A stretch of DNA of 39,131 bases, taken from Basidioascus undulatus (lineage: Eukaryota). Where the stretch lies: positions 1-39,131 of the forward strand of contig JTLS01000038.1 of the NCBI GenBank assembly GCA_000826855.1, in the 5' to 3' direction. A program made the position numbers and the translations under genes. Shown in pieces: positions 1 through 31,942 of this stretch (the stretch's first letter is position 1; each line of letters starts with the position of its first letter). The notes under the pieces are model-generated. The model was not told where the DNA came from, did not search any database, and was given only the letters and a program-made list of their open reading frames with translations.

Positions 1-1184
1 CGTGTCGAACGTTGTCGGGTTCTAGAAGGCGGTCATGGTCGATGGACAAGCCGGGAGGAGGGCCGGGTGTCAGTTTCGTTAATGCGCTGGACAGACAACA
101 CTGTCCGGCCAGATAACGGCGGGCGGTCAGGACCATGACAGGCTTGCATTTGAGAGGATAGAAAAAAATCCTCGAGCTGTGCGGGAGACGTGGAGGGTAT
201 TTGCTACCCCACATGATAGAAAGCTTGCTCGCAGCGCCGAGGAAGCTTTTCGCGATGCTGGCTGGTGACCAATGCGTAAATCAGGATGCCATGTCTTACT
301 TAGAGGCCATGCTTGGTCTCAAATGTGAAACATTTGCTCTTACACGTTTGACACACAGAAGAGAGAGAAAACGCATTCGGGGTGCGGACGTGGTGAGTGT
401 CGGGCATTGGGTGCAGTTGGCTCCTTCTTCCAACGTCCGGCAGGCGCAATCATACAACTTCCAATACAGGAGCTAATGCACTTCCCAATTACGTCAAATA
501 CCACTGTATGGTGAAAATATAATAGCCCAAGGCCTGAGCGGGGATTTCGGTAACGCTAATCAGCCCCAGTGCAACCCGGTCCCAGAAAACTGGTTTGACA
601 GCAGTGCGAAGATCTCGGAGGTTCCTCAGCATTCTTCATCGCAAGTGAGGAGTTGCGTCTTCCTACCCCCGATGCGATAGGCCGATATTGGCTCTCAAGC
701 CATTCGGAACACGTGTTTGCCAAACTTGCTTCACCGCTCCGCTCAGCAGAAGAGGGACGGTGTCGATGTCCTAGTTCACACATACAGGTCGTGCGGCTCG
801 AAGTACGCAAGTACACAATACTAACGTCCATTGGGGATATTGATATTTTGAAAAGCTTGAAGTACAAACGTCCAGGTTGTGTTTGTGCTGGTTGTGTTGC
901 CCAGAAATGAGCGCTCAGTATACGAGCGCGGCCCGCTCCGCAAGCTTTAGCTCGACGTTGGCCCGCCCTACTCCGCCTTCGCCGCCGCCGTGGCCCTCAC
1001 GTTCGCCTCGAGAAGGAAGACGTACCTGGATAAACGCGAGGGTTACATTTATATAACTTGTGATGCCCAAGGTCCTCATCGCAGCACGCATTGCCCTTTC
1101 CCCCCTCAATCTTCAACCTCTGTGTGCTGACTGTCGCTTTGGAATCGCCCTCCGCGGCCTTTTCACCCTTATCGGTTCAATTCG

Positions 1185-2833
1185 ATGGACCGCCATTTTC
1201 AAAATTTCTCACCTGCGCCCTACCCAGCTGTAGGCGTGATTTACGGTCAAAATGCCCCTACCGGATCCGAGGAACCGATGTCGTGGGCGCCCTCTGTCCC
1301 AATACAAGTAAGTCCAACTCTTCATTCACTTTCGAGACGGGCACCCAAGTGTCCGAACCCAAGCGGATGTCTTGTATCTGGCCTCTTTCGCTTGGCTGAC
1401 TGTCCTTGGTTGCGATCTCTTCTGCCCCGCACCTGCAGACCTTCCATCCCCCGATCTCGTATGAGGCGCAGAAACGCATCGTCCACGACCGCATCATCGC
1501 GACCCACCACGGGCTGACGTTTCCCGAACCAGCACCCGCTCCGGTGGAGTGGGTGCCGCCGTTCGAGCAGCCTCCCGCCTCTCCTCTCTTGCCGCACTTC
1601 GGGTCGCCGTCTCAGTCCCACAGTTGGGACGAGACCGAGCTGCCGCTCTGGAACTCCTCTCCGTACCCCTCTTCCTCTCCTCTTCCTCCACCATCGCCGC
1701 ATCCGGCATCGCCCTGGGAGCACCAGTACCAACGGGCTGCGGGCCCGGCACCGTCGTCTGTACCGCAATCGACGTTTTCATTGGCTCCGCCGTCAGCAGC
1801 GCCTCGGTACGACACGCTCAGTCGAGCGTACACCGCCCCGGAACTCGGCCTAGATGCCTCTTCCAAGCACGACTGGACCGCTGGAATGTCTTCCATCGAA
1901 TCGCCTCCGACCGCCACGGGTACTCGAGCGCCTCCTGCAGCTGCACCGGCCAGCAGCGCGTCTTCCGGCTCCTCCTCCACACCAGCTTTTCTCTACTGGC
2001 CCGACTCGAGCCGAGCCGAGCAGACTCTCTCGCCCACCTCGTCCGACTGCCTTTTAGAGAGCTTATCTCCGCGGCAGCAGCGTAAGGCAACGGAGGCCGC
2101 AGCGACAGGGAAGCAGATACCCGCCCGCGCGTCCAGCCGCAAGAAGCGGAAAAAAACTGAGGCCGACGCCCAGGGGATGGATGTCGAGGATACGGATGAG
2201 GAGGTTTCGAAGAAAAAGAGAAAGAACGCTGGCGCGGTGAGTGCTCTGCATATCCTGCGATATGGCCTTAGGCTGACCTCAAGGGGAACGTGACAGTCTC
2301 GGAAGTTCCGCGTGATCAAGAGGAAGAAGGTGGACGTGAGCGTTTGTTTCCTCTGACTTACGATATGTGGCCATCGTCGTGTCTTTCGCTGCTTACGGGT
2401 CTCTTGTGGGCATCGTTTCAGGCCTTAGAGCAGGAACTCGAGTCCCGCAAAGCGAAGCTCCAATTTGTCGTCAACAAGTGTCTGGCGATGGGCGTAGGGC
2501 TAGCACGTGCCGTTCATAAGGGTTCTATCCAATAAACACCCCGGTTCTCATCCAGTTGACCACTGCCCCTCATTGTATTACGCAGGAGGACGCAAACTTC
2601 GACGTCGATGCCGTGTTCCGCCCCTACCCGCGCGACAAGAAGGGACACATCGACCTCTGTGGAGGAGGCGTCGTGAAGCCGGAGCCGAAAATGGAGCAGC
2701 GTCCTCGGCGGAGGTACAACAAGCGCAAAGTGAGTTCGAAGAGGACGAGAGGCATCGCACAGATAGAATGCTCACCTCACAGCCGAAGAACGCTGTCGCC
2801 GCCATCGACGCCGACGCATCCGCGGCGGCCTGA
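1185..2833 (+). CDS. bZIP transcription factor, paralog 1 (Pro/Ser-rich N-terminus, canonical N-x7-R basic region)
   Basis: Manual splicing: MDRHF...VPIQ|GTAAGT..CAG|TFHPPISYEAQKR...EEVSKKKRKNAGA| intron 2237-2296 |SRKFRVIKRKKVD (2297-2335)|..|ALEQELESRKAKLQFVVNK..|EDANFDVDAVFRPYPRDKKGHIDL..|PKNAVAAIDADASAAA* (2783-2833). KRKNAGASRKFR..LEQE fits the bZIP consensus. Confidence 0.8.
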
Positions 2834-3375
2834 GGGCCATTTTTTCGCGGCCACATATTGACTCGTTAAAAGAATCGAGGAGCTGATGACCTAGTCGACA
2901 AGTGATACGGGCCATATTCAAACCTATGTCTTCTTCTTTCATGGACGTGGAAGTGCGGACGGACGGGATTGTGGGCGCCTGGAACGACTGTATTCCCCAC
3001 TGGCTATAGGTAGGCATGTGATGCGCACGTTTAGGTTGCACCAGTTCACTGCAAGACTGTTTAGCACAAGCCAAACAGCGTAAGTATGGCACGTTGTGAG
3101 CGGCAGAAGGCGACGTTGCACTTTCGCGAAAGCATCTCAAAGCCGGCCGCCTGGCACGGTCCAGTACGCCGCAGTGGCACCCGACAAGAAAGTAAACTGA
3201 ACCGCTGCACAACTGGCACAAGGAGAATATTAGGAAGAACCGCCGACCGCAAGCCGCAGCCCCGCATGGTTCGATACTGCCTTAAGACCTCCAGGTTCGG
3301 ATCCACAAACGAGCGCCGTGCGGAAATGTCCCATGAACGAAGCGCACCACCTCCACACATCCGTCCCTACCCCAT

Positions 3376-6219
3376 CTAATCCTCCTCCATTCCCGCGCCC
3401 TCCTGGCCGACCCCGAGTCCCTGGAATTTCTCCGTCCGCCCGGGGACCTTCCCATCCGCCCTGAAGCCCACGCGCGTCTTCTCGCGCAGGCCCTCGACGT
3501 CCGCGCCCTCGTCCTCGGCCCACTGGAGAACGAGGTGGCGGCCGAGCAAGTGCGAGTGCTTGAGCGCCTCGAACGCGTTCTCCGCCTCGCGCCGCGTCGC
3601 AAACTCGAGGAACGCGAAACCGCGCGTCTTGGCGTCGAACTTGCGCGGGAGGCGGACGGACTTGAGCTGACCGTGGGCGCTGGAAGTGCGAAAGTAAGGT
3701 CGTAAACTTCGTGCTGCGACGGGCAGGCAGAGGGGGACGGAGAGGAGGAGGGAAAGGGGAGGGATAGAAACGCACCCGAACAGCTCGCGCACGTCCTTCT
3801 TGCTCGCCTCGAACGGCAAGTTCTTGACGATCATCTTGGTCGTCTTCGTCTTGCCCATCGCCTCCTTGCCGTCCTTGCCCTCGTCCTCCTCGCGTCCGCG
3901 GTGAGCGAACTTGACCTGCAGCGCGTGGCCGTCGAGGACGAAGCCCTGCATGCTGGCCGCAGCGCTCTTGGCGTCCGCGGCGTCCTTGAACCCGACGAAG
4001 CCGTAGCCCATGCTGAGGCGCGCGCCGGGCTTCTTCGGGTCCGGCTTGGTCTGGATACGGGCGAACACGAAGCCGGGGAGGGACGCGAACGTCGAGGAGA
4101 ACTTGGACTCGACCGTGGCGAAGGAGAGGTTCTTGACGAAGAGCGTCGCGCCCGGCGCGGCGGAGGAAGACGTCGACTCGACTGCTGCGGACTGGTCGGG
4201 GAGTGTGACGACCGCGCTGGGGGCGGTGACGACGGCCTTCGCGTCGGTCGGCGCGGCGCCGCCTTCCCACATCCCGCCGGGGCCCTTCTCGAGATAGAGG
4301 ACCGAGTTCCCCATGCGCTTGTACGCGAGCGCGCGGAACGCCTTGCGCGCCTCCTGCGGGAGGATGAACTCGACGATGGCGATCGTGCCCGCGGGAGGGA
4401 CGAGCACGCGCGCGAGCTCGCCGTGCGGCGCGAACGTGTCGCGCACCGTGTCAGCGCTCGTGCCGTAGGGAATGTTCTTGACGAGGATGGTCGTTTCGGA
4501 GCGCGGCTGCTTGTTCGCGTGCGCGGGGTCGAAGGCCTCCAAGTTCACGCCCGAGGAGGAGAGGAAGGATTTCGTTTCGGCGATGACGTGCGTTTCGGCG
4601 AGCGCGAGCCGGACGGCGGCGTTGTCGGAGGAGGGGTCGAGGATGTCGGCTTTGGAGAGCTTGAGGCGGTCGGCGACGGACGAGAGGACTGCATCTTGCT
4701 GTAGGAGTGGGCGGGCGGCATTCAGTAGCCGAATTGAGATCGGAGGAAGGGGATAAGAAGACGGGAACCGACGCACGTTCATGAACAGCCCACTCCAGCT
4801 CCACTCCCTGCCCTCCGCGCCCTCCCTGCGGTCTTTCGCGCGAACCTTCTTCACGCTCATCTTCCCCGGCTCCTCCTTCTGCTTGCGGTTCACGGCCGGA
4901 AGGACGTGCATGATGCGTCCCTGGAACGTACTCCCGTCGAGCGCCTGGAACGCCGCGAGCGCGGCGTTCGGCTGCGCAAACGTGACGTAGCCGATCCCGT
5001 GCGGGGTCTTGGTCGTGGGCGAGAGCGGGATGTGCGTCTGCGAGACGACGCCGTACTTGGAGAAGAGCGCGGCGAGCTCGGATTCGGTGCAGGAGAAGGC
5101 GAGGTTGCGGACGAAGAGGCGCCCCGTCGAGAGGATCTGCTCGGACGCTTCGGCAAGCCGGCGCGCAGCGGCTTCGGCGGGGGTCTCCTTGATCTGTGAG
5201 GCGGAGGGGGAGGGTTCAGGGGTGGTGGTCCCAAGTGCCACGGAAGAGGAAGATACACACCTCGTCTTCCTCCTCCTCCGACTCGGACTCCACCTTCTTC
5301 GCCTCACGATTCCCCTCCTCCTCCGGAATATGCCGGCGCTTCATCCTCAAGCGCATGTACTCGAGGTCCGTCAAGCCCTCCGCATCGACATCCCTCATCG
5401 CGGCGTCCTCGCACTCAGCACTTTCTCCATCCACCTTCTCCTCCTGCGCCTGCACCTCCGGCGTCGGCTCCCTCGCGCGCTTCTTCTTCTTCTTCGGCTT
5501 CACCTCCTCCACCACCGGCTCGGGCTCCTCCGCTTCCGCTTCCGGCTCGGGTACGGGCGCGGGCTCGGACGCGGCAGGAACCGAGTCCTCCCAGCTGCGG
5601 CCCTTGCCTTTCGGCTTGGACCCCATGACAGAGAGGAACTCGTCGAGCTGCGCGGAGGACTTGGATTTCTTGGCGGGTGGAGCGGAGGAGCTGGCGGTGG
5701 GTGCGGCGGAAGAGGGCTGTTTCGACGCGGAGGGTACGGGGGCGGAAGGAGGCGGAGGGGAGAGACGGCGTCGTTTGGGTGGGGGTGCTCGCTGAATAGG
5801 CTTCTCCTGTGATGAATGGAAGTAGCCTTCAATCAGTTCAAGCTCAAGGACCGCTGGCATCTCCCTTCACCGCCCATCGCGCCACCCAGGAGTTCGCAAG
5901 ACTCACATCGCTAACGACATCCACGTTCAACTTCCACGTCCCCCAGTACGTCCCATTGAACCATTCCCTCGCATCACGCGCCTCCTCCTCCGTCTTGAAC
6001 CCGACAAAACCAAAGCGGCGGCTCGTGCCGTCGCGCTTGCGGGCGAGCTTGGCGTCGGTGACGGTCCCGCCGCGCTCGGCAAAGTGCGCGCGCAGGGTGT
6101 CCGCAGTCGCGTCGGGGGGGAGAGATTTGATGATGAGTCGTGACCTGGGAATGGAGGTAGAGCGGAGCGTGAGTCTGGGAAGCTGCAGGGGCAAGTGACG
6201 GTGCCGCTCAGACGGACAT
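3376..6219 (-). CDS. MRD1: Multiple RNA-binding domain protein 1 (five RRMs, RBM19 orthologue, 40S biogenesis)
   Basis: Spliced N-terminus MSRLIIKSLP..RRFGFVGFK. Further RRMs: RLFVRNL, TILVKNIPY, TLFVKNL..MGYGFVGF, KMIVKNLPFEA..RGFAFLEF..HLLGRHLVLQWA. Linker WSGLFMNQDAV..AVRLALAETHVI is typical of Mrd1. Introns include 6145-6217, 5194-5260, 4699-4776 and 3680-3775. Confidence 0.95.
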
Positions 6220-7197
6220 TAGGCCATTCGATCGAGATTTAGGCGGCGAAAGAGAAGGCGGCTCAGATGAGAGTAGATTGTGCCCTAAGATTGGTAAGTC
6301 GTATTTTAAATCTGGAGAAAGGTGAGCTTGAGCTGGGAGACGAGAGTGTGGCAGGAGGTCAACCGCGATTCGAAAGATTTGGGTGGGCCGGCGGACTTTG
6401 CTTCCGAGGGGAGATGGTTGTTTGGCGCTTCAAAGCCGTGGCGCATTCGCACGAGTGATTCCAGTGCCTCTCGAGAAGCAGGCAATATCCAGAAAACCAG
6501 GCCTTTCATTCTTCCAGTTTAAAGACGAAGAGTCAATGAGGAAGAGGGCACCAGCCCGACGCGTGAAAAAGTGATTCACAAACCACGCCACCGCGCTTGA
6601 AAAGGGTGCTCCACGCATAATCTGAGATTACCCGGGGGAATGTAAAGGTCAAAGAAACAGCAAGTCACAGAGAAAGACAATCAGGTTAAACGAGAAAAGG
6701 CCAAGACCCTACGCTGTGCCCCCTTAGGGCCCCGGTCTGCAGCTTGACTCCTCTTTTTCCCAAACAGGCACATGTTCAAGTGCTCTTCACGTTATTCCTT
6801 ATCTGAAACCTATTCTGAAGACCTCCTCCCCCGTCGTTGTACCGCCAGCTCTTACAGTCCCTTCCTTACATACGCGCCGGCGATCGCGCGATGCCGTATC
6901 TCGGTCGGCTTCTGCTTTTGGGGGTTCGTCGTGACGCTTAGGAATATAATTACCAAACCAGTGTCCATTATTGCATGTAGCTTAAAGCTGTCGTGCAGTC
7001 ACCCTAAACCAACATATCACATCATGCAACATTGCGCAACTCAACGTCCTCCTGGTTAACAAGCGCGATCCCGTGTTCCCTGAGCCTCATGCTCTGTTCG
7101 ACGACCCAGCCCAGCACATTATGGCTGTCACACCTCCGCCAAGCGAAGAACTTCCGTCGTGCACGCGTGAGACAGACACCACGCAATTGCTTGGGCC

Positions 7198-8010
7198 TCA
7201 TTTACACCAAACTGTTGAGAAAAGCGGTGCACTTGTTGCGCCACTCCTGGCTGTTGTGCATGATGATGCGAATAAGGCCAAGTGAAGGGGGAAGGGCACG
7301 GAAAAGATCGGGTGAAACCGGTAAAGTTTCAAGGAGCAGGATGGGTAAGTTTGGGCATGTGCTGAGCAAGACCCAATCGGCCGTGGTGTTGGGGTAAACG
7401 CCAGTCGCAACAGTTTCAGGCGGGGAGCGTACTTCCACATAAATGCAGACTGTTGCCAATCCAGATAGTCGCTTCTCAGATAAATCCTGAGCTCGGTGAG
7501 ATTGGCGAAATCGGAGTCTGCTAGCCATGAGCCACCACCGACGTGGATTATCTCACTGCCCAACCGCAAGTTGGTGACCATTGCGAGGCGAAGGGGACAT
7601 GGCATGGATGCGGCTCCGCGAATGTAGACCACTTCGCATGGAGCCCCAAGGTACGCAACTGCGATAATTAATCGATGCATGACAGAGTCAAGCCGGGTGC
7701 GCTCATGAGGACGAGCTGAGCTTTGAGCACCCGAAGTGTGGAGGACGATGCCGACACCAGAACGGTCAGGGTGTGCAAACCCACCGGAAGTACCCGCAAA
7801 AACTTCCCGTCGATCCTGTGAACCTAAATGCTTCGAGACGTGGGAGCATGGCGAGCAGTATGGGAAGCGTTGTCGCATCGAGCGAAACGGATGCCAGGGG
7901 GGCCTTCGGCTCGATGTGAACGACGACCGAGCGAATTTGAGAGGCCAGATCTGCCTTGTTTGTGCAAGCGCGAAGTGTTAAGTGTCGTGATGAGGGCTTC
8001 AGCGAGTTTC
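7198..8010 (-). pseudogene. Probable decayed F-box/RNI-like (LRR) protein gene
   Basis: LRR-like segments in different frames: ADLASQIRSVVVH..LPILLAMLPRLEAFRFTG, then NLTELRIYL..APRLKLLRLAF. No clean spliced model found. Confidence 0.4.
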
Positions 8011-8888
8011 TGTGTGCAGGGCGATGTCTCGATAAAAGCTCCGCGCGCCCACATCCTGTATGCGATGAGACGGCACATCGCAATCCCTTTATGGAAGCAC
8101 TGTCGAGAGACACACCTTTAGAGATCTGCAGATGATGGTCAAAGCTTGGCAGCGAAGGCGACCTGGTCGTGCCCATAGCTAGCAAGCTCGAAGATGCGTG
8201 CGATTATCTCGACGGGGACAGTACAGAACGGGCTCGAGTCCGTCGCGCGACGCTTTGATGATCTTGCAGCAACGAGTGGCAAGGAGATGGTGATGGCGAA
8301 GGGTAAGGAGAGGGTGGCGAGCGGGCTGGGAACGTTCCTGGCCTGTGAATTCTGTGTGCGCCGACAGCCAGCACGGTTCTATGAACACTGGGGTTTGTTT
8401 AGGGCACGAATGTATTTCGAAAAGGAATTTGTTATTACAATACTTGCTGCGCAGCATCCTAGTCTTGATATGATCTAAACGAGGCCTGACGTTCCTCAAC
8501 CTTACGGTGAACAGCCGTTGAAAGCGTAAGGGCCACCTCGCTCTCGACCTCACTCAGGCTGAACGTCTCCATAAGGTTGGCCGGCGCATTGTGCAAACCA
8601 ACGTGTGTGCCTTTCTGGTGCTTGTACTGAAAGAACCTGCAGACGGCACTGCAGGGCTTCAGGTTGGCTTTCAAGTGTCCATTCGCGCATATATAAAAAT
8701 ATTATCAAAGGCAATTTGTTCGACTTTTAACTTTTCATTAACAATGTCGCATACCACAGCAGCAATGCCATCAGCGCAAAGAAGACACAGCTCTGAGCGG
8801 CGTCCGTCCCACATTCCGTCGGCCGCAGCTTTCCTCGCACTTCACCCACATACGAATATGGCTGGCAAATTCCCCTGACGTAGTCCCG

Positions 8889-10655
8889 TCAAGCTGCAAC
8901 AGCTGTACCAGCCCCGGCAGCGGCAGCAGCTTTCTTCGTCTGCACATGAGGGTTCGGCGAGTCAGCGTCGAGTGCGCCCATGAGCAATCACGGAAAGAGA
9001 GCCTATCAGCGTCAGACTCCCCCCCTTCTTCCTCCCCCCCGAAGGCACGGTGTTCGCGCTCTTCGTATTCGCCTTTTCCCTCTCTTCCTCGGTACGGAGG
9101 TCGATGTGCCCGCGGCTGTCGCGCGGGTAGTGGGGGAACAGCGCGGGGACGTCCATTCCTGGACCCTTAAAATTTGCGAGACAAGAAGACATTGGCATTC
9201 GTGGTAAGATACGACGGTCAGGACGGTGCTGATCCTGGGTACACACAAAGTCTCCCCCGTGTCGCAGGATCTTATCCACAACGAAACGGCCGCGCCCACT
9301 GACCGCCTCGATCTCTTGCTCCAAGGCCTGCGAGAAGGTTCCACACCAATTTACAATTAGTTATCAAGATGCAAGACAAGATCTAGGAGAAGAATGAAGA
9401 GAAGGGCTCACAGCCTCCCGCTCCCGCTTCTTCTTGCGGAACTTTCGCGACTGTCGAGTCGTGCCCAATCAGCACACCACCGCACCGCGCCCAGCGCAAC
9501 AAGGTAAAAAAGACTCACCGAACCCGCCCCCTTCTCCCTCCTTTTCAAAGCGGTCTCCTCGTCCGTCTCCTCATCCAGCTCCTTGCCCTGCGCCGCAGCC
9601 TCCTCCCTCTGCCGCTTCTTTTGCTCGCGCAGCTTCTCCGCCGTTGCTGCGCCGCCCGCCGAGCCGCGCTTCTGGGGAGGCGGTGTCGGCTCGCGCAAGC
9701 GGGGACTCGAGGACAAAGCGCCGGAGGAGGTCGTGGCAAGGGAGGGGAAGGTGCTGGAAGCCCAGGCTGTCGAGCGGAAGGAGGCGGTGGTGGGGCCGAC
9801 TGCGGCAGAAGGGAGAGTGGATCCCACGGGAAGAGTGGAGTATTGGGGGAGCATCGGGGGAAGCCACGCGTTGTGCTGCCGCTTCCAGGTCGGCTCGTCA
9901 TACGGCGGAGGAGGCGGAACCGTCGTTGGCTGAGCGGCCTGCAGCGACCCTGCCGGGGACGTGCCAGACGTCCAAAATGCTAAAGACGTCGCGGCTGTCG
10001 CTCCGGCACCGAACTCCGGAGCGGTGTATGCGCGAGTGAGCTCGGGCCGGGGGACCGCCGCCGGCTGGTCGAACGAGACCACCGACTGGGGCATTGAAGA
10101 TGACAACGGCTGGAGGGGCCGATGCCACGAGGGTGCCGAATGTGGCTGCGAACGAAGAACGGGAGGTGGGGTGGAGCACAGTGGGGAGTTCCACTGGGGT
10201 AGGGCGGTCTCCTCGCTGTAACTCTCGGCCGGAGAGGTAGCGGCAAAGGTCCTCGGAGGAGTAGGAGCGGGAGGCTGCTTGAATGCGGTCCACTGTGCTG
10301 GAGCAGTTGGTGGGTTGGGACTGTGCAGGCTCGAGTAGGCCGCAATGTTTCGGTACTCCACGACGCGTTTTTGAGCGTCGTAAGATGTAGGGGGATAGTA
10401 GACCTGTTGTGAACAATAAAAGGACATGATATGCGGTCAGTCAACAACTTGTGTCTGTTAAGGACTGGGACGCACTGTTTGATCGGCGGAAGATCCCCAC
10501 GGCGGCTGTACAACGGTCGGCGCGTGTGCCGACGGGTGCTGATCCCACATTGATGTGCTCCCCGATGGGTTAAGTACTGGAGAGGGGCTGGTATAATGAT
10601 TGATCATCGAAATGGAACCGCGAAAGCAGTGAGTACGAGGAGGAGGACTCTGCAT
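8889..10655 (-). CDS. bZIP-like transcription factor, paralog 2 (basic-region Asn replaced by Gly)
   Basis: Homologous to paralog 1: YYPPTSYDAQKR, LTRAYTAPE, EETALKRREKGAGS| intron 9451-9518 |SRKFRKKKREREA (9412-9450)|ALEQEIEA..FVVDK, YPRDSRGHIDL, last exon TKKAAAAAGAGTAVAA* (8889-8939). Start codon uncertain (10655 or a downstream ATG near 10607). Confidence 0.78.
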
Positions 10656-11739
10656 GTGAAGAGGCAGATGGGGGAGATGACGAGGATTGCGACCGCACTA
10701 GTGTTGACGAAAGCTTAAAGGGTAAAAGTTGGACCGCCAGACCCTCGATCGACGGAGATGGAGGTCTCGACATGCGCGCAGGGACGGAGGGCGCGCAGGG
10801 ACGCAGGAAGGCTTGAGAGGCGGGCCGCGTCGGGACAGGACCACGTCAACGGGCAACTCATTATGTACCGATGCGTACCGATTTTTGAAGCACCCAGTCC
10901 CAGTCGAAGGTTCAGTGCAATTTTATGGCCTGTTATTCTGATCAAAGTCCATTTAAGTGGTTACTTCGAGCATCAGCAGGAACTGACCACTCGCTATCCT
11001 GCCCATGTGAAGCAGGTTTGGGAAACACGTGTTTCTACCTGCACGGTGCGTGTTAATGGGAAGTTTCACGTTCCGATTGGTATGTTTGTTTCTTTGGAGA
11101 AAAGCACAATAACTGCGTTGTAAATGGCGGAAGGTAGTTTCCAGCTCTTTGTCGTCTTTGCCCAACATCGCTTGCCGTGTCCGGCGTCCGCTGCCGTTCA
11201 CCGTACTCGGACGTCCCTTGTTCTGGATTTTCGGGAGACATCCGCAACACACTACCAGGCTGAAACTAGACAGCAACCGAGACTCACAGCAACCACATAA
11301 TGTGCCGCACTGCACCCGCATCCTCCAACCCCCTCCACTCGTCACGCACTACTCAACCTTGAGTTCAACGCCGAGTTTCCCTTCCGACTGAGTGACAACC
11401 GAACAGGAGAAATCGTTCAACAGCGGGTCGAAGGCGCGCTGATACTCTATATGTCCCTTGGGAGGCGAGGGCGGCACAAGGCTTCCAGCTGCCGGTCAAG
11501 GTGTTTGCCCTGTGCAGTGCAAGAACGGGCTCAACGATCTGATGCACGGGTGTATGTTGGTATGAGATTTATGAAAGGCACGTACGATGGATCCCCTGTC
11601 CCCCAAACAAATTGACGACATGGCGGAGGTCCGGACTCGTACCGCTGTTACGAAACCGGAAATGAAGTGCCCCAGCAACGCGTCAAAATTGACTGTGGGA
11701 ACGAAGGGGGGAAATGAGAAAATGAGGAGAACTGACAAC

Positions 11740-12300
11740 ATACCGCTCCTCCATGAGCTGCTTGCGGAACCTCCGAGACTACCACGTTTGCTTGTCAGCC
11801 CAATCCTCGATACCGCGCGTGTAGAAACCTTACCGCCTCAGAGTGAGGCGCCTTATTTTCATTCGACACCTCATCCTCGTCCCTCTTCCGCTTTTGCTCC
11901 ACAAACATGGGCTCGGGCGCCTGCATCGCCTGTCGCGGCGGTCGTCCGCCTCGGGCTGACCCACGCCGATGCCGTGGGGGAAAGCTGATGGAGTCGCAGC
12001 CGGTCGGGCCCGTCCAGGGCGACTGCTCTAAATAGGCCGCTTCTGGAGGGTAAAGGGAAGTCTGTGTAAAGAGATGACAGAAGATGTGTGGAGGAGGAGA
12101 CAGAACCGCTGGCCGCAGCCGTGGAAGGGGCCGGGGCGTTTATGGCGGTCGCATGCGGCTCACCGTAGGCTTACCAGTGGTCCAAACCGCTTCCGACTTC
12201 GAGGCGGTCTCAGAATGTGGAGCGGTGACTGTGCGAGCGAGCGAGTGTGTCGTACGGAGGGGCTGTCGGCGGGGGTGCAAACGTAAAGTGCACTGCGGCA
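11740..12300 (-). pseudogene. bZIP-like paralog 3, degenerate and apparently 5'-truncated
   Basis: Minus strand reads TFAPPPTAPPYDTLARSHS (paralog 1: FSLAPPSAAPRYDTLSRAYT), then KRKRDEDEVSNENKAPHSEA|GTAAGG intron 11779-11833 TAG|SRRFRKQLMEER. The intron is at the same position as in paralogs 1 and 2. Apparent frameshift near 12285. Zipper exon not found. Confidence 0.6.
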
Positions 12301-12620
12301 TACACGACTCACGCTCTGTAAGTGCTGTACTTTATAATTCGCGCTGCGTCCTTGCTCACTCGTGCATGCAGCGGCTTCTGCACCTTTGCTTCTTGATTGT
12401 CCACTTGCGTATGATACCGATATACCCTCCTCTCCCATCGGGGTACAAGTCGTCCTCGTTTAACACTTTGTTCCGGTAGGCACTCGCCCGAGGTACCCCT
12501 CGGTCGCCGTGCAAACACATCAGACGGCGCGGTGCACACGACCGTTCAGCCGCATTCAGCTGCATACTCGTTCTCAACTTTCCACGCAATCCTAGAAAGA
12601 ACTCTTCATATCCGCCCCAT

Positions 12621-14603
12621 CTATCCCTCCGTGCCCATCTCCCCCTCCCTCGTCTCCTCCCCCTCCCCCTCCGCCTTCGCCTGCTTCAACCTCCTCACAA
12701 CATGCCCCCACAAACTCTCCGCCAGCGCCCCTCCCTCCCTATCGCCCTCAAGCCACTGCATCTTCACCCTCCCACTCCTCTTCCCCTCCACCTCCTCTCC
12801 CACCTCACCCACCTCACTAACCACAAACCTGCACCGCACCCTCTCCCTCACCTCCACCCCGCCCCGTCTCCGCGCAGCGCGGGACCAGCTGTCGCCCCTC
12901 ACGTCCACCTCCACCACGCCGGCGTCCTGAGAATCGGGGTGTGACAGCGTGAGTGAGGGGAGGGCAGAGAGGGTGGCGAGGAGGACGGAGGACGCGGAGG
13001 AGGGCGAGAGCGGGAGGGCGGGCGTGGTGTGTGTTGTTGGGGCGGGAAGGGAAGCGCGGAGGGACTTGGATGGGGGGCGGGCGAGGGCCTGCGCGGCGGA
13101 GGGATGAGTGGCGAGAGGGGAGGAAGGGGAGGAGGGACGCACGGGGGGAAGACGCTGCGGAAGGAAGGACCATGCGACCGCCCAACGCCGCGTCGAGGCC
13201 TGGACGAATTCGCCGAGGGCGTAGTTGTCAATCTGTCCTTGTGCGTTCAGATCAAATTTGGTAGTTTGGGAAAAGAAGAAGGAAGTAGGACGAAGGAAGG
13301 GAAATAGACGGACTTCCTTCTCCCGCAAGTACGCAACCACCTCACCCACGCTCGACAGCTTCCCGAGCAGGGTGGAGTACCACCGCACGCTGCACCGCAG
13401 GCGCAGGCTCTCGTTTATCATTCGCTTCGCGAAGGATACTTCCCCGCCGGGGGTGATCATTTCGTGCGGGGAGGCGGTGCAGGCCTGGTCCTCGCACGAA
13501 GTGAGGTCAGATGGTGGTGGGAAGGGGATGGGGATGAGGATGCGATCGAATGAAGAAGGAAAGGGGAAGAAAAGGGGAATGCGGAAGGAGACCCACGGCA
13601 TGCGGGCCTAGCTCCTTGCCCTCGGCTGAGCGCGATATGTCCGATGCGGAGGAGTAGAAGGGCGGGTTGCAGATGGCGAAGTCGAGGCTGTCCAAGCGTA
13701 TTCCTAGGATTAAACAAAGCAAAGAGAACATGGAGTGGAGAAGTAGTGGGAGATGAAAACGTGACCCACGTCGGCTGCAGTTCAAACAGCGTCGGGGGAA
13801 AGATGGGCCCCGCCGCGTCAGTGTGCACGAGCTGGATCCGGTCGGCGAGGTTGTTGAAAGCGACGTTGGCGCGCGCGTGGTGCAGGGAGGTGGTGTCAAT
13901 GTCTGTGTCCGCATTGGGAGATCAGGGGTTGTTGGGGAGGGGTAGGGCAGGGAGACACACCGGTGCCGTAGAAGGAGACGGAGGGGGAGAGTCGGCAGCC
14001 GAGCAGCGGGTAGATGGGGATTGAGCCGGTGCCTCTGCGGTTGGGGAATGTGAGTCGGGAGAAGGAAAGGAGGGTGGGGGGATGGGAGATGGGGACTTGC
14101 ACGTCTACCCCCACCCACGGCGCGCTGCGGTCTGGCCGCGTGTAGTCCACGATGTCCTGGATCCAGAGGAGGTAGTCGAGGCGGTTGGGGACCTGCGCCC
14201 TACACTCTCATGAGCACATCCAAACGTGCAACTCAGTGCACGCTTACTCACCGCAGGACATAGCCGATCCTCCGGGATGGTAACATGCAGCTGGAAATCA
14301 ACGAGGAGCAGTGCCCTCGTCAACTCCCTGTCCACCCACGCACTCCCTCATTAGTTCCCTACCCCTGCCACATCTATACACACACACACACCTCAGTGCA
14401 TTCGGATCCTGAAAGTCCAGCGTCGATCCCTTCCCCCCCGGTAGCTTCTTGAGTCTGCGCAACGAACAGGAGAGACAATGAGCTCATCGATCGGGGACGA
14501 AGGCGATGTGAGCGAGCACGGACAGTCGAGCGAGGGGAGGATGTGCGGCTGCGAGGGCCTCGAAGTTTGGAGGATTGGCGGAGTAGCGATTCCGAGGGTG
14601 CAT
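12621..14603 (-). CDS. METTL16: METTL16/Mtl16-family U6 snRNA m6A methyltransferase (Methyltransf_10/RlmF-like)
   Basis: MHPRNRY..PPNFEALA, LTRALLLVDFQL..RLCPAVPNRLDYLLWI, motif I DVGTGSIPIYPLLG, GTDID, catalytic CNPPFY, EMITPGGEVSF, WYSTLLGKLSS, EFVQASTRRWAVAWSF. Confidence 0.92.
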
Positions 14604-14806
14604 GGCGGTCAGTGTGCGAGACGGGGGAGAGTGACTGGAGATGGGCGAAGGGCAAGAGGGAAGACGCGTCCAAGTCGCGTGTGGAACTGAGAGCGCCGCT
14701 TGGCGTTCGACCGCCATCATCCACCGCACTCTACACTTCCTTTCCCATTAATCGACAGCAATTCATCAAGTCCACACAGATTCTACGGACACTTGTTCAC
14801 GCACCC
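14604..14806. promoter_or_regulatory. Compact bidirectional promoter and 5' UTRs shared by METTL16 and HRQ1
   Basis: Divergent ATGs at 14603 (-) and 14807 (+) have only 203 bp between them. Confidence 0.6.
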
Positions 14807-17800
14807 ATGCCCTCCCGCGCTCAACGCGCCCACCTCGTCCGGCACTCCGACCCCGTCCCGCCAAAGCCCCGCCTCAAGCGCAGCGCTTCCTCCGCCTCGG
14901 GGTCCAGTGCGGGCCCAGCGCCCAAGAAGGGCCGGGGGAAGGGAAAGGGAAAGGAGAAGGAGGTAGAGCTTCCTAAGGTGGAGTGGCCGAAGCACTTTGT
15001 CGAGCTGGAGAAGACGTTCAAGGTGCGTGCGAGGCGGTTGCCGCTGGTGGGGCTGGGGCGGGAGACTGAGCTTAAGGAGGGAGGTAGGCGTTGAATACGG
15101 TCATTGCGTTCTGTTCGACTAGAAGGACTATCGCGGTTACCTTCAACCAGATCATCAGCAGCGTGGAGGGACTGTTGAAGAGGTGCGCCGTCGGCTCCCA
15201 CTTTCCCTCTTCTCGCGCTGATTCCCTCTCCAGACCTCTCGAGCTGTTCGAAGTAGCGCAGATCAAGTGCGCTTCTCTTTCTACTACCCTCTCCCACACC
15301 GCCCACTCATGCCCACCTCCAGAGCCCTCCTCCCCGACATCGTCCGCTTCGCCTACATCGAGCACGCCCTCATCCGCGTGCACCTCGACTCCTTCTCCGC
15401 CTCCTCCTCTGGAAAAGGCAAGGGCAAAGCAAAGGAGGACGTTTACGCGCCACCCGAGGAGCGTGATCCCGACGCGCCGGACCATGTCCTTATCCTCGAG
15501 TTCACGGACGGGAAGCGGGCGCCGCCGAAGTGCGTCTGACGCCCTTTGTCTCGAGGACTGGGAAAGCTCTGATCTTGGTTGGGTCGAGGGCACAGGAAGG
15601 ACGCCGCCCCCGAATCGTTCTCCCACCACATCCCCGTCTCCCCCGCCGAGACGCTCAAGCTCATCGCCAAGCGCAACGAGCGCTTCGAAACCGCCGTGAA
15701 CGAGTGCGCCGCCCTTCCGCCTCTCACCGTACGCTCGCACTCAATCGTCCCCGCTCCATAGACTCCTCGCTGCCACCCAGAACACGCCGGACGACCCCGT
15801 CGAGCTCCTCCTCTCCGCCGCGGCAGACCACCTCCCCGTGCAGCCAGCCTCCGCCTCGAAAAAGGCGCCCGCCGCCAAAGCGCCGGCGCGCATCCCGGGC
15901 GTGGGCCAGCGCGCCAGCGTGGAAGCGCTCATTGAGGAGTGTGAAGCGCAGGAGTGGTACAAGGACCAGATACTGCATCGGGAAGTGTTTGAGGCGCGGG
16001 AGCCGACGTGGGGTGCTTCTTGCTCCGCCGGGGAGGTGAGAGACAGAGAGCTGATGAGGTGGAGAGGCAGGGGAGATAGAGGAGGAGATACCGGAGTCGG
16101 TCAAGGACGCGCTGATGTCCATGCGGGGCGTCGTGCGTCCCTTCCCCTCACCATCACACGCTCTCTTCTCCGCTCATACTCTGCCCCGCAGGACCGCCTC
16201 TACTCGCACCAAGCCCGCGCGATCGCGCACCTCGCCTCCGGCAAAAGCGTGATCGTCTCGACGTCCACCGCGTCTGGCAAGTCGCTCGTGTACATGGTGC
16301 GTCCCGTTCCCCTCTCACCCTCCCTCTCTGCGACCTTCTGAAATGAACGCGGGGCCGGACAGGTTCCCGTTCTCCGCGCGCTTTTGCTTGACAGAAACGT
16401 AACCGCATTCTTCATCTACCCGACCAAGGCGCTCGCGCAGGATCAGAAGGGCGCGGTGCGCGGGTTGGTCCAGGCCGTCGAGGGGCTGGGGGAGGTCATG
16501 GTGCGTAGCCCCACCGCCTCCTCTTCCTCTTCCTTTCGCTTTTCTTTTCCCTTTTCTGGATCGGCAACTGACTTAAACTTGTTTGGTAGGTGGAGACTTT
16601 CGACGGCGACACACCGAGGGAGAGCAGAGATACCGTACGCGAGGTGCGCGTGAATCGGTAGAGGTAGAGGAGGAAGATGAGGCTGATGCTTTTGTGGCGA
16701 GGAAGGTTTCTTCGGTTATCTTTACCAACTTTGATACGCTCCACCACTCCATCCTCCCCCGCGAGGACAGCTGGCGGCGCTTCTTGGGCAATCTGCGCTA
16801 CGTCGGTACGTCTCCAGGCAGTTCCTAGCTGCCTAGCAGCTGGACAGCTGACTAATTTTGACCTCCAACGCTCAGTCGTCGATGAGCTGCATTATTACAA
16901 TGGCGTGCACGGCACGTGAGTGGACCGCTGTGTTTGCGGGGCTGACACGAGACTGATGAGAGGGAGAGCTTTGCAGCCATGCGGCCCTCATTATGCGGAG
17001 GTTGAGGAGACTGTGTGCGGCGATGGGCAGTACGTCCTCCGTTTGTTCAGTGGACAGAGGGATCGAGCTTATTGAGCGGAGCCGCAGACACCAGCGTACA
17101 GTTCGTCTCGGCTTCAGCGACGATCGGGAATCCCATCGTGCGTCTTGCTCCTCTGTGCAGGCATGCGTACGCCACGCTGATTCTTTGGCAATTTCAGGAG
17201 GTCGGCTTGAGCTGCAGTGCCTTTACTATGCAAGAACAGCGCGCGGCTAACGCTTACGACACCGCAGCACTTCGAGAAGATCTTTGGCGTGCCGAACGTC
17301 CAGCTGGTAGACGAGGACGGGTCTCCCTCAGGCCGTAAAGTGGGACTTCTACCTCTTCTTCAGCATCCTTTACGCAAGCCTCACCTCATCTACACACAGG
17401 ACTTCCTCATCTGGAAGCCGCCCCTAATCGACGAGCTCCAGCCCACCGGCCCGCGCGTGAGCCCCCTCGCCGAGGCGTCCCAGCTGCTCCGCTTCCTTGT
17501 TGCACGCGGGACAAGGACGATCGTTTTTTGCAAGGTGCGCTCATGTTCTATCAGACCTCCCTAAAGCATACCACCCGCTGATAGTATCCCTGTTGGTGGG
17601 ATGGACGCGTGTACAGCATCGGAAAGTCTGCGAGCATCTGATGAAGACCGTCCGCGCAGACTTGACGACCGAGGGGAGGACGGACATCGCCCCCAGGATC
17701 ATGTCGTATCGCGGGGGATACAACCAGGCGGTGCGTCTTGCGCTTTGCATGAACTGCTCGACCGCTGACACGTTGGGGAACCAGGATCGCCGCAGGATCG

Positions 17801-23280: not shown

Positions 23281-24101
23281 GGGGTGGGTGACGAACGTTG
23301 AGAAGAGTAGAGGATTCGCGGACGGACTGTTTTCCTTGTTTTTCTCAAGGGTTGATGGTACCGGTTCAACGGATTTCCACAACTGCTGTATGCGGAATCG
23401 AAAGCCTCGTGCAAGTATTGTCACGCAGCCTGCTCCTGCGTGATGGACCGACGCCTTCCTACATGAGTGTCTGGCTGACGGCGTCTTGCTACTGGAAAAA
23501 GATCGGAAAGAAGTACTTTTGACAATGTATCCGGCTGGAAGGGGGGAAAGACATCCAGCTTGGCGAGAGGGCGGATTAGCACACTGTGACGGCTTCGAGA
23601 CGCTGATCTCTTCGCAGTACAGTTTTCGGACAGTAGTTCTCTGCATTCTGCGGCGGTTTTACCAAGAAAAGGATGTTTCCTCACAGCTGCACACCCCAGA
23701 TGCAAAGATGTGAAACGTGAGGGTGACGACTGGTGCGGTCGCTGCAGAATAACTGCGTTTGACTGTTGACAGCTTTCAGCTTCTTTTCACAGCCAAATAT
23801 ATAAGTGATACTTTCTCTTTCATCCTATACCATCTCGTTAAATAGAAGAAAGTACCGGTAGTGTGCTGGACGCGCCTGAGCGCCCACCATCCCATCCGAT
23901 CCGCGCTCAACGGCGAGCATGCGCCTGGCAACGCCCGCCATGAGCCGGCTGTCAGCCTGGGTTGCCCTCGGGCATCATTGGCAATCCGTGCGCTGGCACG
24001 TTCGCCATCGCCCTGCCCATCAGCCCACTTTGCAATTCTATCTCTTGCGTTCTCTGCCAGTCTCTTCCTCATCCGCTCCTCCTCGACCCAACTCACCCGC
24101 C

Positions 24102-25204
24102 ATGCCCCTAACCGCTTCCTGGAAGCCGCTCTCGCTCGCGCCCTCCGCGTCCCAAGCACTCACGCGCTCCTCCCAAGCGCTCATCGCATACGGCGGGAAG
24201 GCGTACATCTTCGGGGGCGAGCTGAAGCCGCGCACGCCCGTGGACGGCGCGCTGCACACGCTCGACCTCCAGTCCGGCGCGCTGCAGAGCGTGGAGGTCA
24301 GCGCCGGCGAGGGGCCGGCGCCGGTCCCTCGCGTGGGCGCGGCGCTTGCTCGCGTGGGCGAGGCGCTGTATCTCTGGGGCGGGCGCGGGGGGAAAGAGAT
24401 GAAGCCTTTGGAGGGGGACTTGTGGAAGTACGCGCTGGGGGGAGGTGGGAAGTGGGAGAGGCTTGAGACGACGGGGGACAACCCCGAGGAGAGGAGCTTC
24501 CACGTTCTGACTGGCATCGAGCCTGTGCGTCTTCTCTTCCCTTTCCTCCTCCGGATAGCATTGACGCTGCCACCCGACAGCACACGCTCTACCTGCATGC
24601 CGGCTGCCCTGCCTCCGGACGCCTCTCCACGCTGCACGCGCTCGACCTCCGCACGCTGACCTGGCGGTCGCTCGCGCCCGCGCCGGGCCCGGCTCGGGGT
24701 GGAACGGTGCTTGCCTCTCTCCCCTCCGTCGGGCGCGCGGGTTCGCTTGTCCGCTTCGGGGGGTTCGCAGGGTACGAGCTCGGCGGCCCGCTGGACGTGT
24801 ACGACATCGCTTCGGACGCGTGGGAGTCCGTCCAGCCGGCGGGGGAGGCGCCCGCGCCTCGCTCCGTCCACGCGCTGCTCGGCGTTCCCCCCACACAGAC
24901 GAAGGACGGCACGGAGCTCGTGGCGGTCATGTTTGGCGGGGAGCGAGACCCTGCGCCTGCGGAGCTCGGGCACGACGGCGCGGGGTTCTTCCACTCCGAT
25001 GTGTGGGGGCTGAAGCGCACTGCCGGGGGCGACTGGAGCTGGGAGAAGGCAGTTGCGAAAGATGGGAACGGGCAGCCCCAGGCGAGAGGGTGGTTCGCTG
25101 CGGACGTAGTTGAGAAGACGGGGGAGGTCGTCGTCCAGGGTGGACTGAATGAGAAGAACGAACGCATCGGGGACGCTTGGGTTCTGAGGGTCGAGGAGGC
25201 TTGA
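24102..25204 (+). CDS. Kelch beta-propeller protein resembling plant nitrile-specifier proteins
   Basis: One intron at 24525-24580. Kelch blades: RSSQ..YIFGGELKP, PRVG..LYLWGGR, RSFH..LYLHAGC, RGG..FGGFAGYELG, PRSVH..FGGERDP..LGHDGAG, RGWFA..VQGGLNEKNERIGD. The blade order resembles Arabidopsis NSP5 as I recall it. Confidence 0.85.
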
Positions 25205-29423: not shown

Positions 29424-30419
29424 TTACTCGAGCGTACGACCCTCAAACTCCCACAGCTCACCCTCCCTCGCCCAGTCTATGATCCACTCCTCCAGTGTCC
29501 ATTCTGCCTGAGGTTCCTCAAGCGGGACCACCCACTCCCACTCCGAATCGTCCTCGCGGCGCAGCATCTCCCCCATCCGGGTCAGCTCCTCCTCCGACTC
29601 TGGCTCAAAGTCGTCCGCATCGTCCCACACCACAGACCGCATGCCCGGCCAGCGCGCGGCGGACGAAGTCGACATAGTCTAGAAAGCCGTAGTCCACCTC
29701 GGCCGTGGTGCGGTACGCGCCATCGTCGTCAAACACGCCGCCGAAGACGCACGGGAACAGGCTGGAGGCGTGCACGAGGTGGCGGAGGTTCGGGAGCCGG
29801 CAATACCCGCAGAGCCGCTGAAATTTCGAGATAGGGGCGATCGACGGAGGTAGGTCCACATCGTAGAAGAGGCTGAAGGAATCTCCCACCAAGACGAGTT
29901 CCTCTAGAAGGGGTGTGAGGGACGCCAGTTGAATGCATCCCTGTCGGAAGTGGGAGAAGCACGAGTTCTCGACGTTGAGAGCAAGTCGCTTCAGGTTTGG
30001 ACCGACTGCAGTCAATATAATATGCCTCGGAGAGCAGGGGCGAGGTCGTCGGCCTCCGATAGAGATCCGTTCTAGTCCGACTCTTCTTCGTCATTATCAT
30101 CATCGTTCGATTCCTCGTCCTCTTCCTCTTAACTGTCCAGGTGGACGTGGACACAAAGCGATCGAACCTCCGGTGCGCGCCTTCCTTCGAAGCTTAGCCC
30201 CCGAAAGAGCATTCGATGCAAGAGCTCGAGTCCCTCCCGGTCGGTGACATTGATCGAGGAGTATAGCGCTAGAAGCGCGGTGGTGTGGAGGTCATGATTG
30301 ACGAGGCACAGCGCGGCGAGGGTGGGTGCATCGCGGGTGTACGAGAGAGGATGCGATGGCTCGGCGACGGATTCGATAATGTGGTGAAGGACATCGAGAG
30401 GAACGGGTGTGCGGGACAT
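29424..30419 (-). pseudogene. F-box/LRR-like protein pseudogene
   Basis: MSRTPVPLDVLHHIIESV..TLAALCLVNHDLHTTALLALYSSINV (F-box-like). In-frame TAA and TAG sit in an acidic Glu/Asp tract. Frameshifts lead to PNLKRLALN..LLEELVL..LPNLRHL and a Trp/Glu-rich end. Confidence 0.7.
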
Positions 30420-30695
30420 AGTGGGAGGATGCGACCGGAGGATGAAGGATGAGAGGAAGAACAAGTGCTGCAGACCTCGGATTGCGCAGCCGCACCTACC
30501 TCTTAAGTGCAACGTATCCATGGGAGAGCCTGGACGTCACGGTCAGGGCCGTCGGGGAAAAGTGAGAGCGGGGAACTTTCACTTCTCTTCCCGGTATACC
30601 CCTATACCCCTTAATTTTTATTCTCTCTATTACCCGTAGTTCTGTTAGTGACTCTCGAAATACCCAAAAGCCTAAAGTTACATGCAGCTGCGTCG

Positions 30696-31942
30696 AAGGA
30701 CAAAGTGAGGGCTGTGCCAAGCTGTGTAACTTCAAAGCGAGTGCGCTGTCTTCCAGTTTCCAATTATCAATCATTAATATCTGATTTCGACAGTCAAGCC
30801 CAACAGTAATTGGCCTTCCAAATCAACAATACCAAGTTACAGGATGGATGCATGGGTAATCCGCTAGCTGTGCAAGTCCCAGAAGAAGTGCCGGTCAAGG
30901 TCGAGCTGCTGCCGCCGCTCGCAGAGAATACTAATTTAGTTTTTCCAGCTGTCCGTAAGCAAAGTATAGTCATTTCGCTAAGACTTGACTACAGAAGTAT
31001 AAGCATTCGGGTTTAGGCAAGGGGAAGGCGTAAGCAACGTGTAAGTAAAGTATAAGCAATAGTACTTAAAGTGTAGTCAATTTGCAAAAGACGGCAGAAT
31101 GCTTCCCAGGGTACCGAAAATCACCGGCTCTGTTACAGGCTTGGACGATGTGGCGAAGGATGTCGAGAGGAACGGGCGTGCGCGACATGGGGGGGGGGAG
31201 GACAATGAGCACCGGGTGTGTGTGTCGTGTATGAGGGAAGAGATCAAGGGGCGAACTTGGGAAGTGCGTTTGGGGGAGGAAGCCCGTGCGAGGTCCGTCG
31301 GGGAAACTGAGTGCGCGGTGCCAGAGTGCACTGATCCGCGCTTCTCTTCCCAATGTGCCCCTACGTCCGCTCATTACATGCTATTTTCTGGTCTGCTTGC
31401 AACATCCGTTTGTAGATATAATCCTCAAGTCCTCCCATTTTATCGGCCTTGCCGCCAATCGTCAGTTCTGTGAGTCCCGAGCAGCGTACCAATCACGTAG
31501 CCACACCTACCTCTTCCTCTCGGTTCTGAACTTCTGCACCTACCCAAACGTGCCTCTCCCATAAATCGTTGAACAAAATAAAATTAGGGTAGTTTCCATC
31601 ACAACCTGCAGCTCGACTGTTTCCGGGGATACAATATCGCCGGTAAGTCGCGGCGATGCGCCGTCGCGGAGGTGCAAAAGTCTACTTGGGCACCCCGGCG
31701 GGTGAACCTCAGGCGTTTCAAAAGACCTCAAAGTGCCCCGAAGATGGGTAGGTGCTCAAAAGGTGCCAGCGGGACCAGGACGCTGTACGAAGGCTGAAGA
31801 AGGCCCTGTAGTGCGCAGACGGCGAGTCACGACTGGGGTTTCTCATCGCGGGCAGTGGCGGTACGATTAATGTGTCAAACTTCCTGGTCTTAGCCATTTG
31901 TGAGTCCATACATCCCACGCCTCAAGGACAAAGTGAGGGCTG
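30696..31942. repeat. Dispersed direct repeat with identical 19-bp core AAGGACAAAGTGAGGGCTG at 30696-30714 and 31924-31942, followed by degenerate similarity
   Basis: Read directly. One copy lies upstream of each MSRTPVPLD start. Confidence 0.8.
31066..31188 (-). pseudogene. Truncated 5' duplicate of the adjacent F-box-like gene
   Basis: MSRTPVPLDILRHIVQAC versus MSRTPVPLDVLHHIIESV at 30419. Similarity is lost after about 17 codons. Confidence 0.65.

Follow-up and report, generated by a model that had tools for sequence, protein, structure and literature searches.

The 39,131-nt contig C2303 of Basidioascus undulatus, taken whole as the window (the assembly holds 32.1 Mb in 2992 contigs), carries a predicted pair of lineage-restricted, remodelled Cys-3-like bZIP genes, one member of which lacks the invariant DNA-contacting Asn and appears to have been maintained. 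The contig is intron-rich and fungal in character. A first-pass annotation had described on it a cluster of three bZIP paralogues with Asn, Gly and His at the invariant position, and three homologous copies are indeed present approximately where it had placed them:

1185..2833, + strand: copy 1, bZIP-derived gene (gene model, splice enumeration, Cys-3 profile)
8889..10607, - strand: copy 2, bZIP-derived gene (gene model, Cys-3 profile, ratio of nonsynonymous to synonymous differences, pN/pS)
11450..12308, - strand: copy 3, bZIP-derived pseudogene (frameshift-aware alignment, splice-site loss, profile score)

We regard the descriptive part of this account, namely gene structures, pseudogene status, purifying selection, a shared promoter box and the residue states, as very probable. 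The full statement, in which the two genes would be co-induced, copy 1 would bind DNA and copy 2 would act as a partner-dependent co-regulator, is offered more tentatively, at somewhat less than an even chance.

Copies 1 and 2 are predicted to be intact six-exon genes, with splicing as modelled from the sequence. Copy 1 encodes 411 amino acids in exons 1185-1307, 1439-2236, 2297-2335, 2422-2502, 2586-2729 and 2783-2833, separated by five introns that are all in phase 0. The intron at 2503-2585 is of the GC-AG type (GT in copies 2 and 3); its retention would bring in a stop 10 residues on, with loss of the C-terminal motif. Copy 2 encodes 453 amino acids from the ATG at 10607, or 469 with a start at the in-frame ATG 10655, in exons 10607-10476, 10403-9519, 9450-9412, 9327-9247, 9165-8992 and 8939-8889. 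Its five phase-0 introns match those of copy 1 in position, and its last donor is weak (GTGATT). The introns directly before SR[K/R]FR, at 2237-2296, 9518-9451 and 11833-11779, are phase 0 as first described and have GT-AG ends, and the spliced basic regions of all three copies read as they had been written. When splice combinations were enumerated blindly and scored against a Cys-3 profile, the modelled junctions ranked best of 90 for copy 1 and best of 555 for copy 2. The pattern of an acceptor followed by SR[K/R]FR occurred 3 times in the window and in none of 100 shuffles, a partly circular comparison because the pattern was built from the three copies themselves. Across the genome (32 Mb) it was found at 4 places, 3 of them in the window and 1 non-homologous, with 3 in the reversed control; the fourth match, on C1563, was rejected as a bZIP, being preceded by a stop and having no basic region. 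No further copies were found elsewhere in the genome, where one weak low-complexity match lay on C1620 (E 0.09). The motif RAYTAP is the same in copy 1 (1823-1840, + strand) and copy 2 (about 10040-10020, - strand) and reads RTVTAP in copy 3 (12240-12220, - strand); it resembles an R-x-x-T-x-P phospho/14-3-3 site.

Inspection of the spliced basic regions revealed what separates the two genes:

2210..2335, + strand: copy 1 basic region, KKKRKNAGA followed by SRKFRVIKRKKVD, split by the intron at 2237-2296
9412..9548, - strand: copy 2 basic region, KRREKGAGS followed across its intron by SRKFRKKKREREA, with Gly (9530-9528) in the Asn register

Copy 1 keeps N, A, S, F and R at all five contact positions (Asn codon 2225-2227), which bears out the earlier claim that its DNA-contacting residues are preserved. 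After splicing, its NAGASRKFR has the N-x7-R spacing of bZIPs and is identical to NTAASARFR at 5/9 positions. The contact positions of copy 2 read G, S, S, F, R; it keeps S, F and R, and has G-x7-R in place of N-x7-R. The first Leu stands nine residues past the Arg (R-x9-L) in both copies, and the REAALEQ hinge of copy 2 is identical to that of L007, a Cys-3 orthologue in the same genome. The proposal that N, G and H stand eight residues before the invariant Arg held for the register. That the Gly is the direct homologue of the Asn codon was not confirmed, as an N-to-G replacement (15 mismatches) ties with N-to-K plus a one-codon insertion (14 mismatches). Under either alignment the base contact by Asn is predicted to be gone from copy 2. 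The residue is kept in 68/68 Cys-3-type relatives. The GAGSS stretch of copy 2 carries helix-breaking substitutions, without Asn and without Pro; the mean helix propensity of its basic region is no worse than that of copy 1. One study of bZIP contacts gives their scheme as NXXASXXCR and reports that changing the Asn of Zta to Ser or Gln weakened binding 34- and 17-fold, respectively, and altered the preferred base, Gly not being among the residues tested there (PMC8756438).

The region after the basic segment has been rebuilt in both genes:

2422..2502, + strand: copy 1 post-basic exon, a short amphipathic stretch with L, R, V, M at d positions (one Leu)
9247..9327, - strand: copy 2 post-basic exon, with L, V, V, H at d positions, SGRG (two Gly) mid-exon and Gly at an a position
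2586..2657, + strand (copy 1) and 9165-9097, - strand (copy 2): DVxAxFxxYPRDxxGHIDL motif, from alignment

The intact leucine zipper on which the first-pass annotation relied was not confirmed in any copy. The heptad d positions read LRVMA in copy 1 and LVVHG in copy 2, so that each retains 1/5 Leu, the first only; they read LLLLL in the Cys-3-type genes L007 and L009, and LLL at d3-d5 in 64/68 Cys-3 relatives. Past the first heptad, copies 1 and 2 score at or below 0 against every other zipper and +23 against each other, and the canonical zipper was therefore lost before their split. Pfam searches at E<=10 (queries of 48, 37 and 30 residues, respectively) returned 32 families, most of them coiled coils, for the zipper exon of L007, none for the exon of copy 1 and 1 for that of copy 2. 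Large hydrophobic residues occupy 5/7 core a/d positions in copy 1, within the 4-6/7 of other bZIPs of the genome, and the amphipathic heptad pattern runs for about 3.5 heptads. The g-e' pairs of copy 1 are favourable (K-E/E-K); by a crude count of net pairs, copy 1 with itself gave 4, copy 1 with copy 2 gave 3, and pairings with the Cys-3 paralogues gave -1 to 2. In the best AlphaFold model, the copy 2 exon forms a single continuous helix (predicted local distance difference test score, pLDDT, 77; 57-62 in the other four models), and SGRG was dropped as a helix breaker, the model still drawing a single helix. Both copies might still form a short coiled coil built on residues other than leucine. 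The private motif DVxAxFxxYPRDxxGHIDL, common to both copies, follows a Gly-containing turn. AlphaFold gave no fold for exon 5 (pLDDT 62, predicted template modelling score 0.22), and an EF-hand reading of copy 2 exon 5, suggested by weak ESM Atlas matches (0.77-0.80), was rejected: Pfam finds no EF-hand there, and the Ca-binding positions 1, 5 and 12 are not kept. A short zipper with a fold-back tail occurs in Zta of Epstein-Barr virus.

The basic region of both copies is, as judged by several comparisons, closest to Cys-3/MetR bZIPs. The Pfam bZIP models (PF00170/PF07716), scanned exon by exon, matched 13 and 12 places in the genome and none on this contig, because the introns split the domain into three short exons. 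We built a Cys-3 profile from 68/68 homologues of L007; a member of one match's cluster is named 'Regulatory protein cys-3', and the best named relatives of L007 are the basidiomycetes Flagelloscypha, Rhodosporidiobolus, Sporobolomyces and Wallemia. Copies 1 and 2 scored 17.0 and 15.7 bits against this profile (500 shuffles of each reached at most 4.3 and 2.7), in agreement with their description as bZIP-derived paralogues. The match ended at model positions 46 and 42 of 66, that is, after the basic region and about two heptads. Our own profiles gave 16-20 bits for the spliced copies across comparisons. Four loci of the genome, L005 (C855), L006 (C592), L007 (C2883) and L009 (C2958), are conventional Cys-3/MetR-type genes with leucine zippers (59-112 bits). 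They took ranks one to four among the other bZIPs for both copies; L007 was the nearest of 12 (13/28 identical). In this comparison the L002 row, missed by the motif search, was dropped, and scores for L030 (mis-cut) and L027 (zipper mis-spliced) are unreliable. Maximum-likelihood trees on 34 columns nested both copies in the Cys-3 group with support of 97/94 in one tree without L030, and of 96/93, 97/93 and 95/94 in three later ones from which L027 and L004 were also excluded. DNA identity between L005 and L006 is about 69%, and two further Atf-like copies, L010 and L011, exist alongside L003; duplication of bZIP genes seems to have been frequent here.

Comparison with Cys-3 proteins showed no resemblance outside the segment formed by the basic region and the first heptad. 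Searches for relatives of the remaining parts were also negative: copy 1 exon 2 had no homologue among 8000 scored candidates of only 163-520 amino acids, and ESM Atlas gave no usable match for it; a profile of both exon-2 sequences found 0 at E<=0.001 among 1.84 billion representatives; the C-terminal motif alignment found 0/204 candidates among longer proteins; and metagenome scans confirmed 0/595 and 0/189 pattern matches. These queries were single exons, which relatives sharing the spliced basic region only would escape. We found no account of such a bZIP subfamily in the literature, where alignments in the supplements of fungal bZIP surveys could include similar Asn-less members.

Comparison of the two genes points to purifying selection on both. 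In 391 aligned codons, 158 are identical, with pS 0.62 and pN 0.40; pN/pS is 0.64 (bootstrap 95% interval, 0.57-0.72) and the corresponding rate ratio dN/dS 0.43, at a synonymous divergence (dS) of about 1.3. By block, pN/pS is 0.44 in the acidic and basic part, 0.56 in the N-terminal block, the strongest long conserved block (65/142 identical), and 0.53 (0.26-0.98) in the post-basic exon; taken singly, neither the 22-codon basic region (0.24-1.22) nor the 24-codon C-terminal motif (1.06; 0.51-2.87) reaches significance. The intron pairs, 5/5, are at background (z -1.0 to 0.4). In 2000 runs of a neutral simulation, copy 2 stayed stop-free in 10.5% at 0.05 and in 1.7% at 0.1 substitutions per site. 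By the ratio and the simulation, copy 2 is not drifting neutrally; such drift was among the outcomes that the first-pass annotation had named as contrary to its idea.

The upstream regions of the two genes share a box:

706..734, + strand: 29-nt promoter box of copy 1, palindromic ACACGTGT, with the E-box CACGTG at 710-715, 451 nt before the ATG
11007..11035, - strand: the corresponding 29-nt box of copy 2, 400 nt upstream of its ATG (10607)

The two boxes are identical at 26/29 positions and are the sole genomic occurrences at up to 3 mismatches; the best match in 64 control windows reached 21/29. The copy 2 promoter also contains a 17-nt unit in two copies (10774-10807).

Copy 3 is predicted to be a 5'-truncated, frameshifted pseudogene of the copy 1 lineage. 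Its similarity to copy 1 starts at 12308, corresponding to residue 147 of copy 1; a methyltransferase gene lies about 300 nt upstream of that point. No convincing homology was found further 5', where the copy 1 score was reached by 6/100 shuffles and the copy 2 score by 1/100. Copy 3 has at least four frameshifts, near 12285, 12236, 12159 and 12068; frameshift-aware alignment needs 4 in about 440 nt, and 0 for copy 2 by the same method. The donor and acceptor of intron 3 are gone at the homologous positions, followed by an additional 2-nt deletion, and a further frameshift lies near 11612. The exon of copy 3 is 69% identical to its counterpart in copy 1 and two introns are 68-72% identical, as would be predicted for sequence free of selection. 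The copy 3 introns are nearer to those of copy 1 (z 2.3-5.7) than to those of copy 2, so that copy 3 must have branched from copy 1 at a later time. Read in the most favourable way, from ATG 11926, copy 3 scores -1.5 bits against the Cys-3 profile, a value reached by 394/500 shuffles, and the R-x9-L spacing is lost. Its His codon (11845-11843) stands in H-x7-R rather than N-x7-R and, in a pseudogene, carries no information on specificity. On these grounds copy 3 can no longer be counted as a gene, and the proposed N/G/H series of working alleles is reduced to two live genes.

We propose the following history. A Cys-3/MetR-type bZIP gene may have been duplicated and remodelled in this fungal lineage, its C-terminal leucine heptads being swapped for a short non-leucine amphipathic helix and the private C-terminal motif. 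The remodelled gene would then, long ago, have given rise to copies 1 and 2 by a local inverted duplication on either side of an MRD1-like gene; later, a 5'-truncated piece of copy 1 would have inserted upstream of copy 2 and decayed into copy 3. The two live genes may be co-induced through the shared CACGTG box. Copy 1 would bind DNA by its intact NxxASxxFR contacts, as a dimer formed via the short helix, and copy 2, without the Asn, would bind weakly or without sequence specificity. It might be recruited by a partner, copy 1 or some other factor already on the DNA, and so tune output as a co-regulator, not as a dedicated blocker. By analogy with yeast Met4/Met28, the most likely arrangement would be a DNA-binding factor (copy 1) with a co-regulated, DNA-binding-impaired partner (copy 2). 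Several observations weigh against this account. Approximately unbiased (AU) tests on the 34 columns reject no alternative placement (outside Cys-3, p 0.415; Yap-like, 0.408; Gcn4-like, 0.233), and the intron positions (+12/+51/+132) match none of the four Cys-3-like loci exactly (+16, +66, +133). A pairwise dN/dS cannot show that constraint acted once the Asn had been lost, and pN is depressed when the alignment is guided by the proteins. RYAAT, the Met4 recruitment flank two bases 5' of CACGTG, is absent at both boxes and no CYS-3 site was found in the window; a sulfur link is therefore not supported. Finally, the post-basic exons match no coiled-coil-like Pfam family, so that dimerisation may have been lost altogether.

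The first-pass annotation had favoured a different role for copy 2, that of a CHOP-like dominant-negative partner; in such a reading, a heterodimer with copy 1, formed here through the short private helix, would block or redirect DNA binding. The intact and constrained state of copy 2, its lack of Asn, the two Gly in its basic region, the g-e' pairs with copy 1 (3 attractive, 0 repulsive) and the single helix of its best AlphaFold model (pLDDT 77) all agree with such a role, and CHOP itself has Gly and Pro in its basic region, plus an activation domain (PMC5712004). However, the analogy requires a conserved leucine zipper and neither copy has one, with 1/5 d positions Leu (LRVMA / LVVHG) as against LLL in 64/68 relatives; moreover, Gly sits at a core a position in copy 2, its conserved basic residues and SRKFR would be superfluous in a pure sponge, and the shared promoter box suggests that the two genes are regulated together, not in opposite directions. 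A CHOP-like inhibitor is conceivable but lacks support, and we consider it unlikely; the two genes might in principle still form an activator/antagonist pair. About equally doubtful is a reading in which neither protein is now a dimeric DNA-binding bZIP, the basic region serving nuclear localisation or partner binding and the proteins themselves acting as cofactors via their conserved N-terminal motifs. Loss of the zipper heptads in both before their split, with scores at or below 0 against all other zippers, the 0-1 Pfam matches of the post-basic exons, several basic clusters, the N-terminal position of the strongest long conserved block (65/142) and the degenerate basic region of S. cerevisiae Met4, as PMC11502921 describes it, are consistent with this reading, whereas long divergence has left in copy 1 precisely the five residues that contact bases, along with the R-x9-L spacing, and amphipathic heptads persist for about 3.5 heptads.

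Copy 2 might also be a redundant duplicate in early decay, its Asn loss a recent relaxation without function. The locus has already yielded one dead copy, the branch of copy 2 is longer (1.92 vs 1.1), its last donor is weak and Gly occurs in its helix, and drift up to 0.05 substitutions per site leaves the open reading frame stop-free in about 11% of runs. Yet at dS of about 1.3 copy 2 has kept its 453 codons, its 10 splice sites and its promoter box intact. At the Asn position, moreover, the two copies are separated either by three base changes or by one substitution and one inserted codon, more than one recent mutation would produce; we judge early decay to be rather improbable. Still less probable, and combinable with any of the other explanations, is an origin of the basic region in a Yap- or Gcn4-like subfamily, or its convergence on Cys-3, which would make comparison with sulfur regulators inapplicable. 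The non-significant AU tests, the differing introns and the confinement of Cys-3 similarity to the basic region and first heptad would allow it; the four trees (bootstrap 95-97), the exact REAALEQ hinge of the Cys-3 orthologue in copy 2 and the first four ranks of the Cys-3-like loci for both copies argue otherwise. A further reading, in which the private pair would use a new dimerisation module (short non-leucine helix and YPRDxxGHIDL fold-back) in place of the leucine zipper, insulated from the four canonical Cys-3 paralogues, as a co-induced activator/attenuator switch with selected Asn loss in copy 2, is speculative and also has a low probability.

The other features of the contig are as follows:

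3376..6220 (start approximate), - strand: MRD1/RBM19-like multi-RRM gene, unrelated, between copies 1 and 2 (PF00076 in 4 stretches; RBM19 PDB matches)
7198-7977, - strand: between copy 2 and the RRM gene, an open frame of 259 codons that matches no Pfam family
about 12605-14605, - strand: RNA methyltransferase gene (PF05971), immediately 5' of truncated copy 3
15700-16341, + strand: DEAD-box helicase exon
23880-25204, + strand: Kelch-repeat exon
35156-36154, + strand: histidine-phosphatase exon

Copies 1 and 2 face the intervening MRD1/RBM19-like gene from opposite strands, and a TATAAA lies at about 12335, between the methyltransferase gene and copy 3. Short direct repeats at 30379-30428 / 31148-31197 (84% identical) and 30696-30754 / 31924-31989 (73%) may be the trace of another local duplication. 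Rfam gave 0 matches.

On sequence alone, a lineage-specific duplication with one dead copy is ordinary. If copy 2 is expressed and functional, it would be a case in nature where selection has removed the least variable base contact of bZIPs, and this in a gene whose dimerisation surface has been rebuilt as well. Such genes escape exon-level Pfam scans, and fungal bZIP counts may miss them.

Among known systems, CHOP/DDIT3 resembles copy 2 in having Gly in the basic region, in keeping an N-terminal regulatory region and in coexisting with DNA-binding paralogues, but it pairs with C/EBP and ATF partners through a conserved leucine zipper (PMC5712004). SKN-1 of C. elegans, as described in PMC4756839, has a bZIP-type basic region without a canonical leucine zipper and an extra basic cluster N-terminal to it. 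It belongs to the CNC proteins, has a helical support and retains nothing of a zipper, unlike copies 1 and 2 with their short amphipathic helix after the basic region, and the likeness is one of description. Cys-3 of Neurospora, MetR and MetZ of Aspergillus and Cys3 of Cryptococcus share the NxxASxxFR contacts (copy 1), the REAALEQ/ALEQ hinge and R-x9-L, and paralogue pairs such as MetR/MetZ are known in this family (PMC8550094). Copies 1 and 2 differ from them in lacking the C-terminal zipper (LLL at d3-d5, E-N-x-W-L), in their private N- and C-terminal motifs and different intron positions, and, for copy 2, in lacking the Asn present in 68/68 relatives. In S. cerevisiae, according to PMC11502921, PMC3737730 and PMC6695392, the Met4 basic region is degenerate, Met28 does not bind directly, and Cbf1 recruits both at CACGTG. 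These two are likewise Cys-3-family paralogues with degenerate or absent DNA binding that act in complexes, with a CACGTG upstream element. Unlike copies 1 and 2, they dimerise via leucine zippers and use RYAATNNCACGTG sites (PMC3737730); the B. undulatus boxes have no RYAAT, and the origin in this basidiomycete-like genome would be independent. Provided that copy 2 is expressed and functional, it would independently repeat the course taken by Met4/Met28, in which factors of the Cys-3 family abandon direct DNA binding.

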